Shown here: positions 4,108 through 45,821 of the stretch, one piece after another
Layout of the letters: each line of letters begins with the position of its first letter
Numbering within the stretch: the stretch's first letter is position 1
IMG/VR virus record: IMGVR_UViG_3300009103_001934
Coordinates: 114,488 to 178,487 of that record
Direction: 5' to 3' (one strand)
Length of the DNA: 64,000 bases
From: a virus
Position numbers and translations under genes: made by a program
The notes under the pieces: model-generated
Seen by the model: only the letters and a program-made list of their open reading frames with translations
Told to the model about the DNA's origin: nothing
Database searches by the model: none

Positions 4108-5082
4108 ATGAGTGAAACCTACTTCCCAGATATAATTGGTCAGAACCGTGTCAAAAAAGCGTTGGGCTTTTATATTGACGGTTATCAAGAAACGAATTGC
4201 ATACCGCATCTGATGTTTACTGCACCTCGCGGGTGCGGCAAGACTACGATGGCAACTGCTATGGCAAAGAACCTTGTTGGGCCTGACGGTGCGATTAAGC
4301 CTCTTATTACTATCAACTGTTCTACCATCAAGAGCCTCAAGCAGTTTTTCAATATGATTGTGATACCTCATATGGTTGAGCGTGATGCCACCGTGCTGTT
4401 TGACGAATGTTCTGAATTGCCCAAGGATGTGACGATGGCACTACTGACCATCACCAACCCTAATCCAGAGAACCAGAACGAGTTCTCCTATGAGGACTAT
4501 AACGTGGTGTTTGACTTTCGCCGCTTGAGCTTCATGTTCGCCACTACCGAAGGGCAAAGTATCTTCCATGCACTCATGGACAGAATGGAGCGCATCGACT
4601 TGGAAGAATATAAGTTAGATGAACTTGGTAAGATTGTGTTGCTTGGATTAGACGGTTATACTGTCGAGCAAAAAACGCTAGAGAGTATTTCTAACGTCCT
4701 GCGAGGCAACGCCCGTGCTGGTCAGAAAATGGCGATGAAGATGCGCCTATACCTTGATGCTAAAGGTCAGACTCATTTTGCCGACAAGGATTGGAAGGAA
4801 CTTATGGACAAGCTCGGTATCCTGCCGCTTGGCATCTCCGTCCAAGAACTCAACCTCATGCGTTACATGGCGCGGAAGAAGGCAACTCGCCTTACCGAAC
4901 TCGCCGCAATCACTGGACTCTCCAAGGGAGCAATCCAAAAAGATTATGAGTTATATCTCTCCAAAATGGGTCTAATGGAGATACAACCAGAGGGTCGCTC
5001 CCTCACAACAAAAGGATTGGAGTATCTTAATGACCTCGATGGAGTTAAAAAGAACAAGTCTAACAAGGCTAGTAAAAAATAA
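4108..5082 (+). CDS. ruvB: RuvB-like AAA+ branch-migration ATPase
   Basis: DIIGQ, Walker A APRGCGKT, Walker B LFDE, FATTE, LMDRM arginine finger, RGNAR sensor II, C-terminal ELYL...GRSLT; promoter TTGACA-17-TACAAT. Confidence 0.85.
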   Translation: MSETYFPDIIGQNRVKKALGFYIDGYQETNCIPHLMFTAPRGCGKTTMATAMAKNLVGPDGAIKPLITINCSTIKSLKQFFNMIVIPHMVERDATVLFDECSELPKDVTMALLTITNPNPENQNEFSYEDYNVVFDFRRLSFMFATTEGQSIFHALMDRMERIDLEEYKLDELGKIVLLGLDGYTVEQKTLESISNVLRGNARAGQKMAMKMRLYLDAKGQTHFADKDWKELMDKLGILPLGISVQELNLMRYMARKKATRLTELAAITGLSKGAIQKDYELYLSKMGLMEIQPEGRSLTTKGLEYLNDLDGVKKNKSNKASKK

Positions 5083-5110: not shown

Positions 5111-5332
5111 ATGTCTGATTACGAATGGCGCGGCACATTAAATAATAGTGATTTATTTGTAGTTATTAAATATAACCTTGGTGCTTGGAAAGTAAAATAT
5201 GCTGAAACAGAATACGATCTAAATAATGTAGATTATATATATGTAGCGCAAGAATGGAGTCCGATGAAGTATATTATAAATAAAGATAAGATAGAAATAA
5301 ATAACTTAATAACATTTTTAGGATGGAAATAA
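5111..5332 (+). CDS. Hypothetical protein (start uncertain)
   Basis: AT-rich ORF; first in-frame ATG beyond the ruvB overlap. Confidence 0.5.
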   Translation: MSDYEWRGTLNNSDLFVVIKYNLGAWKVKYAETEYDLNNVDYIYVAQEWSPMKYIINKDKIEINNLITFLGWK

Positions 5333-5378
5333 ATAAAAATAAACTTGAATTTAGTCAGGAAGTAGGCTAATATATAGA

Positions 5379-5451
5379 TGTGGGTGCAACGCCCACAGTT
5401 CGTTCATCATCATCGAATCCTCCTGCGGGAAACTGCGGGGGGATTTTTTTT
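5379..5451 (+). ncRNA. Candidate ~73-nt small regulatory RNA
   Basis: Promoter TTGAAT(5345)-17-TAATAT(5368); 5' hairpin TGTGGG/CCCACA; unpaired linker GTTCGTTCATCATCATCGA; terminator with G-U pairs valid only on + strand, then T8. Confidence 0.75.
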
Positions 5452-5690
5452 GTATTTTCTTTAAAACAGTGTAAATAATAATAAGACCTTGCTAAATAAA
5501 TAAATAAGGCAAGCTCAACAGGTTATGTTCAAATAAGCTTTGTAGAATAGGTTCGTCAAATATAGAACTGAAATAAAGTAAAAATAAAACAGGCCCAAAT
5601 AAGGTAAGGTTTAAACTAAATGAGAGTCAATCTCAACGTCCCTCCTTTATGCTAATGAGACTCATTCTCAATTTCACCGGTCCCGATGTT

Positions 5691-5793
5691 GGCAATCAAA
5701 ATTCCAAGAAAATGATCGACAAACTATTTTGCCGCTCACGAATGATCGACAAACAAATTTGCCAATCAAAATCTTCCCAAAATGATCGACAAA
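5691..5793. repeat. Helically phased iteron-like repeats
   Basis: AATGATCGACAAA at 5711, 5741, 5781 (30 and 40 bp apart); CAATCAAAAT at 5693 and 5763. Confidence 0.85.
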
Positions 5794-5810
5794 AAAAAGT
5801 AAAAAAAGGC

Positions 5811-5839
5811 TTGCACTAAAATGGGATGTACGGTATACT
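5811..5839 (+). promoter_or_regulatory. Sigma70-type promoter of the long RNA
   Basis: TTGCAC-17-TATACT. Confidence 0.75.
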
Positions 5840-5845
5840 ATTAAA

Positions 5846-6256
5846 ACAGTGAGGGTAACACCTCCACGATCTTTGAGACAATTTAAGAAGGCGACTGTGG
5901 TAGTCCTCACGCAAGTGAGTGCCCTCGCGGGAAAGCCCCCAGTGGAAGCGCGACGAAACTGGACGGTGATACGATACCGGAGGGATGGGGTTCGACTCCT
6001 CACGCCCTAACAATTTAAGCCTTGGGTGACGGAACAAACGTCCGACAGAGGAAACGGCCCAAGCAATTTTTACTCCGGCGACGGTTGGAGTAAGGGAATG
6101 GCTGAATAACCCTCCATCATAAGGGGTAAGGCACAGGGCCGCGCGTTAGAGTGCAATCGTATGAGGCGCGTGGTTCTGGTAGACTGGTAAACTTGAACTG
6201 TATTGTGCACTGGTCTTGATGGTAATGCAGCAATCCATCTTCCCATTAATTTAGCA
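5846..6256 (+). ncRNA. Large structured ncRNA candidate (family unassigned)
   Basis: No + strand ORF of 60 aa or more; dense hairpins (CTCAC-GCAA-GTGAG, CCAGT/ACTGG, CTTGGG/CCCAAG, TTACTCC/GGAGTAA, GATGG/CCATC) and a T-arm-like TGGGG-TTCGACT-CCTCA. Confidence 0.7.
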
Positions 6257-6348
6257 TAATCCTGAGGTTGGTGAAAACCATTAAAGAGATATTAAGCAAC
6301 AACGCCGAAATCCGCCTCTGATTTTTTTTGCCCTAATGTTAATTTTTT

Positions 6349-6412
6349 GCTTGACACGCCGGGACCGGTCCCGGCGCCTGTCAAGCTTTTTTTATTCACA
6401 GCCTGTGAGAAT
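6349..6412. repeat. Early module 1 (TTGACA-GGGACCGGTCCC-TGTCAAGC-T7, DnaA-box match)
   Basis: Palindrome 6361-6372; TTATTCACA 6392-6400. Confidence 0.9.
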
Positions 6413-6650
6413 TTCTTAAAAAGGGGCGATTTCTCCGGTGTGAAATTCGGCGTATATAAGAAACTATTTGACCCCATACCCTGCAAAAACAGTGTCAAGC
6501 TCAAAAACAATTACCCTATATAAACGCATTTAATTAGCCTAATTAAAAAAGATGTGTGTGACGTGCATTTTTTTCTTGCCAGTGATTAGGAAGTGTGAGA
6601 TAATGGTTTTAGTCGATTGAGACATAACTACTAACGAAAGAGAACGAACT

Positions 6651-7586
6651 ATGCCTATTACCGCAAAACAAAGCAAAAACAAAGATTGGGATTTCACCGT
6701 AGCACAGGAGGAGCTTTTCCTGCCTGACGGCAAGAAGTCCGGTTTCTTCGCGTCCCGCCGCCTCGACAACAACGAGGTGCTGGGCTGTCACACTAGCCGC
6801 TACGGCATCGTCCAGAATGGCGACCTAGTGGAAAAAGCCGAGAGTGCTTTTCGCCGCAAGGGATTGGGCGATTTTGAGCGCAACATCTATGTGACTGACG
6901 GCGGAGCCAAGCTGCGCGTCAATTACGACTTCCAAGGTCACGATATTGAAGTGCCAGAAGTGGGTGACAAGATGGGCTTTCGCCTGACCTTGCAAAACTC
7001 ATTTGACCGCTCGCTGCGCGTGTCCTTTGCGCTCGGTATGCTTCGCCTCGTTTGCACCAACGGTATGCAGACGCTCGAAAAGGAATTGGATATGCTCAAG
7101 AAGCACTCCAAGAACTTTGACCTCGGCGCGTTGCTGACTGATGACGCAATCGACAAGGCTATGGCTACGTTCACCAACACGGGGAACACATACGCCGCGC
7201 TGGCTCGCGTTGGAGTTACTCAAGAGCAAGGCATCTTCGCCCTGCAAAACCAAGCCAACACTGGTTTGATTTCTGACAAGGTGCGCGAGGGTATCGCAAG
7301 CGTGTGGAACAACCCACGCGAGGATGGTGCTGACGGTTCGGTTGGTGATGACCGCAACCTCTACCAACTCTACAACGCTGCCACGCAGTACCTCACCAGT
7401 GACAACTTGGTTGACAAGAAGTCTGGCGATGCTGTCGGCACGTTCGAGTCCACCCGCTTCGAGTACGCGAACCGCGTTAGCTCGCAACTGCTCAAGCGGT
7501 TCAACCTCGCCAGCGACAACCCCAAGCGGTTTGACAAACTGGTTGCGGTTGCCAAGGCTGACGGCGTAAAGGTCGAGAACAACTAG
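6651..7586 (+). CDS. DUF932/DUF945-family protein
   Basis: LQNSFDRS...LRLVCTNGM motif; strongly GC-rich codon bias. Confidence 0.85.
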   Translation: MPITAKQSKNKDWDFTVAQEELFLPDGKKSGFFASRRLDNNEVLGCHTSRYGIVQNGDLVEKAESAFRRKGLGDFERNIYVTDGGAKLRVNYDFQGHDIEVPEVGDKMGFRLTLQNSFDRSLRVSFALGMLRLVCTNGMQTLEKELDMLKKHSKNFDLGALLTDDAIDKAMATFTNTGNTYAALARVGVTQEQGIFALQNQANTGLISDKVREGIASVWNNPREDGADGSVGDDRNLYQLYNAATQYLTSDNLVDKKSGDAVGTFESTRFEYANRVSSQLLKRFNLASDNPKRFDKLVAVAKADGVKVENN

Positions 7587-42504: not shown

Positions 42505-44046
42505 ATGGCAGATAACACCTATAGCCCGCAAACCCCGCCAATACAGGATTTAGATTATAAATCTTTCGGTCCGGATAGCATGGACGAAAACAAAAAACTG
42601 ATGGTTTATAACGATGGGTCCGTATTGGTTGAAAATATAGAAGAGCGAACTGCGGACGGGCTAAGCTACGAATTGGATAAAAAGAATAATTATGTTTATT
42701 TTTCAAATAACTTAGATGCCAATACTAAGGTAAAATATATCCCTAAAAACGTAGATAAAGTTTATTGTACTACTATTAATAAAACCTTTTCTATCAAAGG
42801 GGCTTTGGCTGTTTTTAAAAATGACGTAAGAAAGTTTATTGTTAAAAATTTAGATAGATACAAAACATCTAAGAAGTCACTCAAAAAAGAGATAGACAAG
42901 ATCCTACTAAAGAAAAATCAATTTCTTTGGACCGAAAAAAGACTAAGTAGCGAATGGAACAAAACTTACGTTGATAGCGTTACTCTAGGACCGTATAGCT
43001 GCGACACCACCCTAACCGTTACCAAAGATATAGAAATGATTAATGACTTAATAGTTATTAAAACAGGGGATTGGGGCCAGCTTTATGACTCGAAAACAAA
43101 AAAGATGAACACGGTAGCTCGCGCAGGAAAAATTGTTTGGGTATCTCCCCACGAAATTTTAAATTATTCCGGAGAGGCAAATTATTATTCAAGCGGTGAA
43201 GTATGGACCTATAACACAACTAACAGCGGTGTGTATTCAGGAGAAACTTTTTTGAATGTAAGTTATGGAGTAGGAAACAATAGGGAATCTTACGGTTTAT
43301 CTTCTCGGTTTATAAAAATTCCAAAAGACACTCAGATTAAGACTGAATTTCCATATGAAGAAATCCCAAGAGACGAAACACAATTATTTCTTGACACTCG
43401 TCAGGGGGTGGGGATTGAAAAACAATTTTTTAATGGTATATATTCAGAGTGGGATTGGGCTCAAAGGGTATTAACTGGGACTTGGGATGGAGTCGTTCCT
43501 TCGGGTTCATATATTGAATTGCAAACTTGGTCTACAAACCCTCAGTTCGTTGGCTTTAATGGAGAAATTACTGTTAAGCCTGTAGATACCACTTTAGTCG
43601 AGGATATTGATTTGTCTTACAATATAAGCGCTACAGCGTCGGATTTAAATTATCAAGCTTCAGTGAGAAAGGCGGTACAAAAGGCCAAAAATGTTTTTTA
43701 TAAAAAATTGAACAAACACTTGGTCTCTAAAGGCCTAAAGAAAAAATCTTCAAACCTTAAGAGGTATGATAAGATGCTGGAAAGAGTAGCTCAAAATGTA
43801 TACGATGGATTATCTTTTGTGAGAAATGAAAATATAGCAAAAATACAAGGCTTAGAAAGTAACCCCTTAGATGGACCGATATATTACGACGGCACAGCCA
43901 AAATGTATGGAGGAAGTAAGGAAGAGGCAGACTATGATTACTCACGAACAAAATCACAAAGAAGTTATTTAGGCTTGAATCCATCAAGCACGTCGCAATC
44001 TACCTCATCCAAGACGAACGCTGGAGACATGGGAGGAAGTTATTAA
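42505..44046 (+). CDS. Large hypothetical virion-associated protein
   Basis: Start after a GTGTAA motif; the upstream ORF-track extension crosses the terminator. Confidence 0.75.
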   Translation: MADNTYSPQTPPIQDLDYKSFGPDSMDENKKLMVYNDGSVLVENIEERTADGLSYELDKKNNYVYFSNNLDANTKVKYIPKNVDKVYCTTINKTFSIKGALAVFKNDVRKFIVKNLDRYKTSKKSLKKEIDKILLKKNQFLWTEKRLSSEWNKTYVDSVTLGPYSCDTTLTVTKDIEMINDLIVIKTGDWGQLYDSKTKKMNTVARAGKIVWVSPHEILNYSGEANYYSSGEVWTYNTTNSGVYSGETFLNVSYGVGNNRESYGLSSRFIKIPKDTQIKTEFPYEEIPRDETQLFLDTRQGVGIEKQFFNGIYSEWDWAQRVLTGTWDGVVPSGSYIELQTWSTNPQFVGFNGEITVKPVDTTLVEDIDLSYNISATASDLNYQASVRKAVQKAKNVFYKKLNKHLVSKGLKKKSSNLKRYDKMLERVAQNVYDGLSFVRNENIAKIQGLESNPLDGPIYYDGTAKMYGGSKEEADYDYSRTKSQRSYLGLNPSSTSQSTSSKTNAGDMGGSY

Positions 44047-45821
44047 TGAGCTTTAAAACAAATAGAGTTAACAGAAATTTTGTTTTAACAACAAATTTAT
44101 ATTTTAATAGTAGCTCTTGGAATAGGTCTGGAGATACTACTCCTAGATTTTATTTAAAACCTTCGAACCTTACTCATCTAGAAAAAGTAGCTTTTAACTA
44201 CAGCGGAGCGAAAGCTAATGACTATGTAAAACGAGGGCATAAATTTTGGGGATATAAAAAAGATGATACCCTTACTAATAAAGAGGTCCTAGAGCATTAT
44301 GATCAAATTAAAACATCTTATCCATATGGATTTGTACAGGGAGATATAGCGAGCGAGAATAAATATAATATTGATGTAAAAAATAATGATGCTTTTCAGT
44401 CTTTTTACAAATCTTATTGGGATAATAATCCAGATAAGATAAAACAACCCAAAAAGGATACGAAAGGCGAATGGGATCACCCTCACCCTTATATATCTTT
44501 TACGACAAATGAAATTATTACCGCGAAACATAATGTAGGTACGGTCCCGGTTTTAGAGGCGGGAATACCGACATGGGCCGAATATGGCGTTGGCACCCCT
44601 TACTATTCTCAACCAGAAGCCTATTCATGCATGGATCAAAACTTAAGCGCAGTTGCTTATGATTATTATGGCGATAATAAACTCGCTTTTATTATTGAAG
44701 GCGGCGCGCATATGCCCTTAGTGCTAGCTAACAGTGGTCATTCTTATACATTTAATTTACAAAGTGGCGCTACTCCATGGGCTACCTCTAATGTGTGGCC
44801 CACAGGGGTCGGAGGAGCACACTCAGGAATAGATTTACACTTTAGCACTGGAAGGGATGGCACTTGGAATGGTTTCGACAAATTGGATGACGGCGTAGCC
44901 GGTGACGCGTTTATTAGAAGAGCATACGAAAAACCGGGCACACACACCTATTACGTATCCTCTGCAGTTAAAGACGGTGATCCAAATACCGGGCATCCTT
45001 GGTATAATTCAGGTAGCGTTTCTGGATTTGTTATAAGTGGTGAAAGCCAACAGTCTGGACCATTAAATTTATATAGGGGTTGGACCTATGTTTTCAATCT
45101 AACTGGATCCTCTAACGTGTCTGAGCGAGGAACGGATGGCAATTCACAAAACGCTGGAGGGGACTATGATCGTAGCGCGTTATACTTCACTAATAGCCTT
45201 GTATCGGGCGAGTGGGGAAATGAATCTGAAAACGAACTTGGCGGCGGGATTTGGGCAACCGGTATCGGCGCAGGAATTTATACAATTAGTTTGGACTGGG
45301 ACTGTCCAGACACCTTCTTTTATCAAAATAGATATGCTGCGTATTATGGCGGCGTAGTAAACGTAACTGATCCTCCTACAGCTTTGGGTGATAAGCCGGG
45401 GCAAATAGTAAGGATCACCTTAAGCGGGGGTAAAGACGAATATCTATTTTATTATTCTCCTAATCAATCTGGAATGGGAGGATTAATGATACTAAAGGGA
45501 ACTTGCGACGGTAAAGTGGCGAGTATTTAAATAAAAAACTTTTTGCATAACATTTTAATATGTGTTATAATAAATTAGATTGGCCGTATTGGGTGAACTC
45601 GGTAGAACTCTCTCGTAGACAATACCGAGCCAAGCCGGAAGTGGGCTTAGTGCTTCCGGAAGGTGTAGAGACTAGAGGGTGAGTCCCAACAATAACCCCT
45701 CCACGAGCGCCCAACACCGTAAAGGTGAAGATATAGTCCGAACTGCATGGCGACATGTAGAAGTCGTAATTAAAAAAGCGTCGATAACAACTTGGACTAC
45801 GAGATGAGTGCAGCGTACTAA
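44046..45821 (+). CDS. Gly/aromatic-rich structural protein split by a group I intron (exons 44046-45512, 45795-45821)
   Basis: Splicing joins ...TCDG to DYEMSAAY-stop in frame; the unspliced ORF stops at 45530. Confidence 0.7.
45513..45794 (+). ncRNA. Group I self-splicing intron (IA-like, no homing endonuclease)
   Basis: P4 CTCGGT/ACCGAG, P3 TTGGGTG/CGCCCAA, R GTAGAGACTA, P7.1 hairpin, S AAGATATAGTCC, P9 CTGCATG-GCGA-CATGTAG, terminal G; P1 ACGGU/GCCGU with U-G at the splice site. Confidence 0.9.
45543..45571 (+). promoter_or_regulatory. Consensus-like sigma70 promoter inside intron L1
   Basis: TTGCAT-17-TATAAT with extended TG. Confidence 0.7.

Follow-up and report, generated by a model that had tools for sequence, protein, structure and literature searches.

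The phage RNAs GOLLD and ROOL assemble into cages made only of RNA and often lie near tRNA islands, with GOLLD sometimes carrying tRNAs in its linker (Kretsch et al. 2025, PMC12286853). RNAs of a further family, manA, were described mostly from putative 5' UTRs (Weinberg et al. 2010, PMC2864571) and have counted as a riboswitch candidate for 16 years; a cryo-EM study now reports that, in vitro, members of this family other than the one described here assemble into decamers and 60-mer cages made of RNA alone (preprint 10.64898/2026.07.01.735769). Phages also make smaller stable RNAs, among them the T4 species 1 and 2 RNAs (rnaC and rnaD), which are around 120–140 nt, are annotated in the T4 tRNA cluster and are of unknown function; rnaC ends in a canonical T-arm (CCGGG-UUCGAAU-CCCGG). 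The rRNA (rrn) operons of Bacillus subtilis carry a small 5' hairpin followed directly by the boxA-like sequence AUGAUCUUUGAAA, which binds NusB, and boxA is also found ahead of CRISPR operons (2026 study; PMC13753749). In Escherichia coli the rrn boxA and its spacer read ugcucuuua-acaauuua, with the spacer binding NusA (PMC2724277).

The locus considered here lies in the genome of an uncultured large marine phage of ~178 kb, known from an IMG/VR record of 178,487 bp that is rated complete by CheckV; the window, meaning the whole 64,000-nt stretch of DNA that was analysed, corresponds to bases 114488–178487 of that record. The phage genome has a G+C content of 40.8 % and includes a large terminase, while most structural ORFs have no PHROG match and no match to Gp23 was found in it; the phage is therefore not called T4-like here. 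It also encodes tRNA-Arg, tRNA-Ile and tRNA-Leu and a separate bona fide tmRNA, all with CCA. The stretch of interest (5811–6393, plus strand) is a promoter-to-terminator unit with separable RNA modules, flanked by a clamp-loader-like AAA+ gene (4108–5082) and a DUF932 gene (6651–7586). Our best explanation, which we think is probably correct, is that this unit is a self-contained RNA-only operon consisting of a boxA-like leader, a tRNA-shaped RNA, a small hairpin RNA and a manA RNA. Its features, all on the plus strand, are as follows.

5811–5839, plus strand: sigma70-type promoter read from the sequence, with TTGCAC (5811–5816), a 17-nt spacer and TATACT (5834–5839), behind an A-rich tract
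5849–5867, plus strand: 5' leader hairpin from folding, GUGAGGG, loop UAACA, CCUCCAC
5868–5885, plus strand: boxA-like element GAUCUUUGAGA and then spacer ACAAUUUA, from sequence comparison
5887–6009, plus strand: tRNA-shaped RNA of an uncatalogued family (module B), from an alignment of 26 distinct relatives and the covariance model R1 built for it
6010–6019, plus strand: linker ACAAUUUAAG, with related copies at 5878–5887 and 6063–6069
6020–6064, plus strand: small hairpin RNA of 45 nt (module C), closing stem CUUGGG/CCCAAG around the conserved interior GUGACGGAACAAACGUCCGACAGAGGAAACGG
6071–6249, plus strand: manA RNA (RF01745) of 179 nt, found with Infernal against Rfam 15
6250–6348, plus strand: 3' trailer with a small GAAA hairpin (~6268–6279) and a first U-run at 6322–6329, conserved with two relatives (L002 and L003)
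6349–6393, plus strand: intrinsic terminator, a 16-pair hairpin with a 2-nt bulge (6349–6386) and then UUUUUUU, conserved in the same two relatives

An earlier sequence-only reading of this DNA had proposed a ~410-nt multi-stem RNA, of no assignable family, that contained an internal mimic of a T-arm and ended at 6256. That this is a structured, non-coding phage RNA behind a promoter is supported by comparative evidence, whereas its description as a single RNA of 410 nt is not, and the unit continues beyond 6256 to the hairpin terminator at 6349–6393. The tract is GC-rich, as had been stated (56 % in module B and 50 % in manA, against 40.8 % for the genome), and GNRA loops are found within it (GCAA at 5911–5914 and GAAA near 6272). 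It is not free of ORFs, with mechanical ORFs of 53–109 aa overlapping it; what distinguishes its relatives are compensatory base changes and hairpin insertions or deletions of 17–75 nt, which is the pattern of an RNA and not of a coding sequence. The folding energy of the single sequence is a weak guide, giving a z-score of −2.05 for the whole tract (5845–6260) and of 0.01, that is like shuffled sequences, for module B, so the case rests on comparison with relatives. By that comparison the parts of the unit, their order, their conservation and the independence of the modules are matters of observation.

The best known part of the operon is its last gene. The manA assignment is clear, scoring 77.9 bits against a gathering score of 55.2 (E = 4e-18) and covering model positions 1–192 of 192, and in the cmscan alignment the window matches the conserved CUGAAUAA and places GGGAA and UUCCC in the columns of the GGGA...UCCC pseudoknot that brackets this motif. 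The Infernal scan that the earlier reading had proposed as a check thus returns a known class for 6071–6249, and no other Rfam match near significance is present in 5500–6500. Like most known members, the window copy comes from a marine phage, and it is full-length; it differs from them in closing an RNA-only operon that has a terminator of its own, and in sharing a transcript with a tRNA-shaped RNA. The likening of the tract to GOLLD and ROOL in that reading was apt, given that its 3' 179 nt belong to the family for which the preprint reports cages, and the pairing of manA with a tRNA-shaped RNA echoes the occurrence of cage RNAs near tRNAs. In sequence and size, however, these RNAs are unrelated, manA being shorter than 200 nt, and the GOLLD and ROOL models of Rfam give no match even at E-values up to 10.

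Rfam lists manA as a cis-regulatory RNA (type Cis-reg) and, with most members being placed in putative 5' UTRs as cited above, the unit might be read as a leader or riboswitch of the downstream DUF932 gene. Here manA is free-standing and does not occupy a 5' UTR: between it and the DUF932 gene lie the terminator, whose hairpin folds at −28.1 kcal/mol (z = −5.5), and a separate promoter for that gene at 6576–6604, with the intervening 3' trailer folding no better than shuffled sequences. The gene order of relatives points the same way. Three related contigs (L002, L003 and L004) were reached through the DUF932 protein, and in each of them the operon with its manA RNA lies downstream of the DUF932 gene and not upstream as in the window, so neither can be the leader of that gene. 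We consider a cis-acting role on DUF932 to be very improbable. The free-standing gene in the window and in its relatives argues against cis-regulation by manA and fits the report of cages.

Scans with short conserved words added further loci to these three contigs and revealed how the modules are arranged. The window and L002–L004 share a promoter and a leader and have differing inserts between leader and manA. The order leader, B, C, manA is found in the window and in L177, leader, C, manA in L002, and leader, B, manA in L125, L153, L196 and L199, with module C following manA in L125 and L153. Module B also occurs between C and another module (L156 and L159) or between two other modules (L157 and several more), while L142 has leader and manA only. 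Each module therefore recurs in related phages, alone or reordered, and because modules recur as strings in this manner, the '410-nt RNA' is better described as one primary transcript with separable RNA genes. An initial scan of viral sequences with a 15-nt pattern from the leader was unspecific and returned at least 119 loci, only the four known relatives being real; of the 33 matches to a 16-nt word from manA, around two-thirds fell by chance in coding DNA. A blastn search with this region found no match among 50,697 phage records.

The same arrangements bear on whether the tract could instead be one large ornate RNA of ~410–550 nt, of the GOLLD or ROOL kind, in which the tRNA-like part is an internal domain. 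All modules do lie on one primary transcript, the linker region of GOLLD can hold tRNAs, and module B lies beside manA, or one module away from it, in 9 of the 27 distinct loci with module B. Against this, each module also turns up in the absence of the others and in different arrangements, the manA RNA by itself spans its full Rfam model, the minimum free energy fold of the whole tract reaches only the modest z-score given above, and the modules are separated by conserved, unpaired, A/U-rich linkers with no covarying long-range pairing seen between modules. A single large RNA is in our view unlikely, and we retain the reading of an operon of several RNAs.

The linkers are themselves a recurring feature of this operon. 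The modules are joined by (A/G)CAAUUU, and in most relatives this linker follows the discriminator base of module B. On the sense strand CAAUUU occurs 2.9 times per kb inside the RNA operons and 0.39 times per kb outside them, a 7.5-fold difference. They may be RNase E-type cleavage sites or NusA sites, or neither. The small hairpin RNA that lies between the second and third linker copies of the window is known from 10 distinct copies, the closing stem being CAUAGG/CCUAUG in most and CUUGGG/CCCAAG in the window. Its RNAalifold consensus has 13 pairs, five of them with compensatory changes, and the inner helix switches between U-A and C-G; module C has no match in Rfam.

The tRNA-shaped RNA is the part of the operon that the earlier reading had seen as a T-arm mimic without a complete cloverleaf. 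The T-arm is present exactly as it was written, but it belongs to a separate and complete tRNA-shaped module and is not internal to one big RNA. The sequence GAAGGCG (5887–5893) pairs with CGCCCU (6003–6008) beside the T-arm and closes a four-arm junction that covariation supports, which contradicts the view that no complete cloverleaf is present. The elements of this module, all on the plus strand, are the following.

5887–5893, plus strand: acceptor 5' strand, GAAGGCG
5894–5904, plus strand: D-loop-like ACUGUGGUAGU, unpaired and containing UGG
5906–5919, plus strand: hairpin P2, CUCAC-GCAA-GUGAG
5922–5984, plus strand: conserved long arm of 63 nt, consisting of P3a, a bulged G, P3b, an internal loop, P4, P5 and a 14-nt loop
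5986–6002, plus strand: T-arm, UGGGG (5986–5990), UUCGACU (5991–5997) and CCUCA (5998–6002), placed 0–1 nt after the long arm
6003–6008 and 6009, plus strand: acceptor 3' strand CGCCCU and then the unpaired A6009 at the discriminator position

The UGG stretch reads AAAUUGGUG in the relatives and ACUGUGGUAGU in the window. P2 is variable across relatives, with hairpins of 17–75 nt and loops from 4 nt upward. The stems of the long arm are P3a (CCCUC/GAGGG), P3b (CGG/CCG) beyond the bulged G5927, P4 (GCC/GGU) and P5 (CCAGU/ACUGG); the internal loop places GAAA opposite GAUACGAUA in the window, with GAYACGAUA as the family form, and the 14-nt loop at 5944–5957 is GGAAGCGCGACGAA. In most relatives the acceptor stem is formed by GUUGGUG with CACCAGC, and that of the window is the weakest in the family, having four G-C pairs, an A-C mismatch, an A-U pair and a G-A end. 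There is no anticodon loop and no encoded CCA. This is the topology of a class II tRNA, P2 standing where the anticodon arm would be and the conserved arm where the variable arm would be.

Homologues of module B were collected with two pattern scans, which yielded 7 viral and 38 metagenomic loci, all of them marine, and from these 26 distinct full-length sequences were aligned (alignment A4); because the 14-nt loop and GGAAAGCCC were part of the patterns searched for, conservation there is partly circular and the set is biased to close relatives. Across these 26 sequences 97.9 % of the cells of the proposed helices are paired, as compared to 28–44 % when the 3' partners are slid, and the covariation score was reached by none of 500 shuffles. 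Pairing amounts to 94.4 % in the acceptor, where the window has two mismatches, and 100 % in the T-arm. Compensatory changes are seen in 10 of the 29 pairs (four in the acceptor, three in P3, one in P5 and two in the T-stem), examples being acceptor pair 3:70 as U-A, G-C and C-G, P3a with G-C/C-G and A-U/U-A, and the T-stem with C-G/G-C; within the long arm it is P3a, P3b and P5 that covary. By pair counting, then, the covariation among homologues that the earlier reading had named as a check is present in the tRNA-shaped RNA. With the model R1 the window reaches 136.6 bits and a divergent copy in L004 52.7 bits. In this divergent copy the P4–P5 hairpin is replaced and P3b is changed at all three pairs, which remain paired, with the internal loop being kept. 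An alternative CGGU/ACCG hairpin, suggested by single-sequence folding, was rejected in favour of P3b and P4, given the A-U to G-C changes in P3b and the swap of all three of its pairs in L004.

The likeness of module B to class II tRNAs, and especially to tRNA-Leu(UAA), extends to a 7-bp acceptor stacked on a 5-bp T-stem, a 7-nt T-loop of the form UUCGANU (within the tRNA pattern UUCRANY), a discriminator A, UGG where G18 and G19 of the D-loop lie and a long arm just 5' of the T-arm. R1 matches tRNA-Leu genes, its only other matches being the tRNA-Leu(UAA) of L131 (30.6 bits) and the T4 tRNA-Leu (18.9 bits), in which the variable arm aligns to P3a. Unlike these tRNAs, module B shows neither a conserved D-stem nor a conserved 7-nt anticodon loop with U33, it encodes no CCA, and its 'variable arm' is an invariant 63-nt domain. 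The family is absent from Rfam, with no match to the tRNA model RF00005 at E-values up to 10, and ARAGORN at default settings, with or without introns, finds no tRNA or tmRNA in module B or the window. At an 80 % threshold ARAGORN made calls of Arg, Ser and 'Stop', which were rejected as incoherent with shifting boundaries, and matches obtained from Rfam at permissive E-values (1 kb, and module B alone) were noise, such as mascRNA (E = 8.3) and a snoRNA (E = 2). The core pattern of module B was absent from 185,579 prokaryote genomes.

The T4 species 1 and 2 RNAs share with module B the size and setting of phage stable RNAs, but their interior sequences are unrelated and R1 gives no match to rnaC or rnaD (in L161) at E-values up to 10; since R1 does not detect them, this likeness is one of kind. 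With the tRNA-like domain of tmRNA it shares an acceptor stem, a T-arm and a stemless analogue of the D-loop, whereas it lacks G3:U70, CCA, a tag frame, a resume codon and a ring of pseudoknots. A UAG in P5 was considered as the stop of a tag peptide and rejected, the window having CAG at this position and the position lying within a covarying helix. In a comparison with bacterial Y RNAs (YrlA), no TROVE domain was found in the phage genome, and the ends of module B lie in an acceptor stem and not in a Ro-binding stem.

Another reading is that the tRNA-shaped RNA carries an amino acid and works at the ribosome, either as a factor of the tmRNA or rescue type or as an unusual leucine acceptor. 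Such a role would be in keeping with the 7-bp acceptor, the canonical T-loop, the discriminator A and the tRNA-Leu-like class II topology, and with the investment of this phage in ribosome rescue through its own tmRNA. It is hard to reconcile with the want of an encoded CCA in a phage whose three tRNAs and tmRNA all encode one and in whose genome no gene for a CCA-adding enzyme or SmpB was found. Furthermore, pair 3:70 varies (U-A, G-C, C-G and A-C) and is never G3:U70, pair 1:72 is often mismatched, no 7-nt anticodon loop is conserved, there is no tag reading frame, and ARAGORN (including its -m mode) detects neither a tRNA nor a tmRNA. We regard a charged, ribosome-acting RNA as distinctly improbable. 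The absence of a D-stem, of a 7-nt anticodon loop, of a conserved acceptor identity pair and of an encoded CCA leads us to the view that module B is not a decoder, which is nevertheless among the least certain parts of the explanation.

The imperfect acceptor stem of the window and its missing CCA could also be taken as signs of decay, module B then being a functionless remnant of a tRNA or tmRNA beside a manA gene. The 63-nt arm is, however, nearly invariant, and compensatory changes keep four helices intact across 26 sequences from many marine samples. Together the near-invariant arm and the compensatory changes indicate purifying selection on structure, and a remnant is extremely improbable. 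Module B is better seen as a maintained gene of the RNA operon, retaining what RNase P and other readers of the tRNA top half need and dropping decoding. Its neighbours in 31 loci are confined to genes for DUF932, L5-gp82-like, GP88 and SprT-like proteins and cell-wall hydrolases, with no RNA-handling partner gene near it in any of them, and neither the 14-nt loop nor GAUACGAUA has an antisense target in the phage genome.

The 5' end of the operon resembles that of rRNA operons. The promoter had been called strong in the earlier reading; it is of the sigma70 type, but its −35 hexamer TTGCAC matches only 3 of 6 consensus positions and the site is not listed by a consensus promoter scan, so that 'strong' does not stand. 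The same promoter is kept in L002, L003, L004 and L177, and other relatives have near-consensus promoters of the TTGACA/TATAAT type at the equivalent position. Transcription would start near 5846, and the host-type promoter suggests that the unit may be among the earliest to be transcribed. Leader hairpins of other sequences and with GNRA loops take the place of the window hairpin in relatives, namely GAUGAGG-GAAA-CCUUAUC in L004, AGGG-GAAA-CCCU in L181 and L193 and GUAAGG-GGAA-CCUUAC in L187, and a covarying hairpin precedes the boxA-like word in the window, L004, L181, L193, L187 and L125.

The boxA-like word itself agrees with 11 of 13 positions of the B. subtilis rrn consensus, for a short motif whose consensus is host-specific and may differ in the host of this phage, and the spacer that follows it in the window is identical to the E. 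coli rrn spacer acaauuua. The locus thus has a boxA-like sequence and an AUU-containing spacer near the 5' end of an untranslated operon. Of 32 related RNA operons, 22 have the word UCUUUGARA at their transcript start or close to it, the remaining 10 having no boxA-like word, and no boxA-like word was found at any other promoter of the phage genome. The likeness to an rrn boxA leader therefore comprises a 5' hairpin and then GAUCUUUGAGA and ACAAUUUA at the head of an untranslated operon; the difference is that here the leader is found in a phage, ahead of small non-coding RNAs instead of rRNA. We propose that it is a putative loading site for NusB/S10 and NusA in an rrn-type antitermination system.

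A possible course of events can be put together from these parts. Host RNA polymerase would initiate at the promoter, the boxA-like leader would load NusB–S10 and NusA as in rRNA operons, and the untranslated transcript would in this way escape Rho. RNase P may then cleave 5' of the acceptor stem, before G5887, because the acceptor, T-arm and elbow are the form that RNase P reads. RNase E-type cleavage in the A/U-rich ACAAUUU linkers would release the modules, the RNase E consensus RN|WUU fitting ACAA|UUU. The linkers also resemble the NusA-binding spacer. Once released, the manA RNA might multimerise, as the preprint cited above reports for other members in vitro. For module B, the top half (acceptor, T-arm and elbow) would most likely serve processing, stability and recognition by tRNA-binding factors, again one of the least certain parts of the explanation, and the invariant arm would be the working part, binding a protein or RNA partner, which might be the manA assembly.

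The co-transcription of the tRNA-shaped RNA with manA also suggests a joint function, in which a manA cage or scaffold would dock or enclose an equimolar amount of the tRNA-like RNA through its arm or its elbow. We hold this idea to be rather improbable. If true, the phage would possess a particle made of RNA only, displaying tRNA top halves or sequestering them, for instance as a trap for host tRNA-binding factors or for defence factors that target tRNAs, and, taken with GOLLD and ROOL, 'cage RNA plus tRNA' would be a general phage device.

The manA family is known from earlier work. Three features were not found in the databases and literature searched and are new to these sources, namely the tRNA-shaped RNA, the small hairpin RNA and the format of shuffled operons led by a boxA-like element. 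Module B adds a well-supported case to the small group of tRNA mimics from phages, the purpose of which has been a question ever since the T4 species 1 RNA, and the boxA-type leader suggests how phages may shield long untranslated transcripts from Rho. The further shuffled modules seen in the related loci (M4, M5 and M6) point to a larger RNA repertoire in marine phages.

The RNA operons of related phages are assembled from further modules, of which M4 recurs 3' of the tRNA-shaped RNA or of manA in at least 11 loci, and M5 and M6 are two additional recurrent elements (L-numbers denote related loci from other phages and metagenomes):

L157 5000-5120 (-): M4, also in L169, L170, L182, L184, L191 and others
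L156 1360-1480 (+), L159, L164; L049, L157, L158: M6 and M5

M4 has the sequence CCUCGCCUCAACCGGACGCAGAUAAG...GCCGUGGCGAGG, with a long stem closing the module, M5 has the sequence GUUCUCUGAAAAC.ACGCUUGAG...CAGCGUGACG and can also carry GGUGCUGGGUUACAGGCCAU as an insert, and M6 contains GUGGAGCCGAAAGGUGGGGAAACGGGAAACCGCC; M4 has no match in Rfam, and M5 and M6 are both absent from that database. In L003 another structured insert of about 250 nt (5145-5420, +) stands where the tRNA-shaped RNA would be, and a copy of module C, the small hairpin RNA, is embedded within it.

Two kinds of element precede the RNA operon in the window:

5415-5446: strong terminator hairpin (14 pairs and a U-run), closing a short unit that lies a little way upstream of the operon
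5711-5723, 5741-5753, 5781-5793: three copies of the direct repeat AATGATCGACAAA, directly upstream of the RNA promoter

The repeats are possible operators, or possibly promoters that have decayed; their counterpart in L004 is AATGATTGACAAA, within which TTGACA is found.

The phage also carries RNA elements elsewhere, namely tRNA-Arg(tct), tRNA-Ile(tat), tRNA-Leu(taa) and the following:

70910-71327 of the whole phage genome, outside the window: full tmRNA that carries G3:U70, has its CCA encoded in the gene and specifies a tag with ...ELQLAA at its end
45523-45760 of the window (+): group I intron (RF00028), which scores 61.6 bits where the cut-off is 50

Despite the full tmRNA, no SmpB gene was found in the phage genome. 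Because the intron begins (45523) at the end of an ORF (44046-45530), its position suggests that a late or structural gene is split by it.
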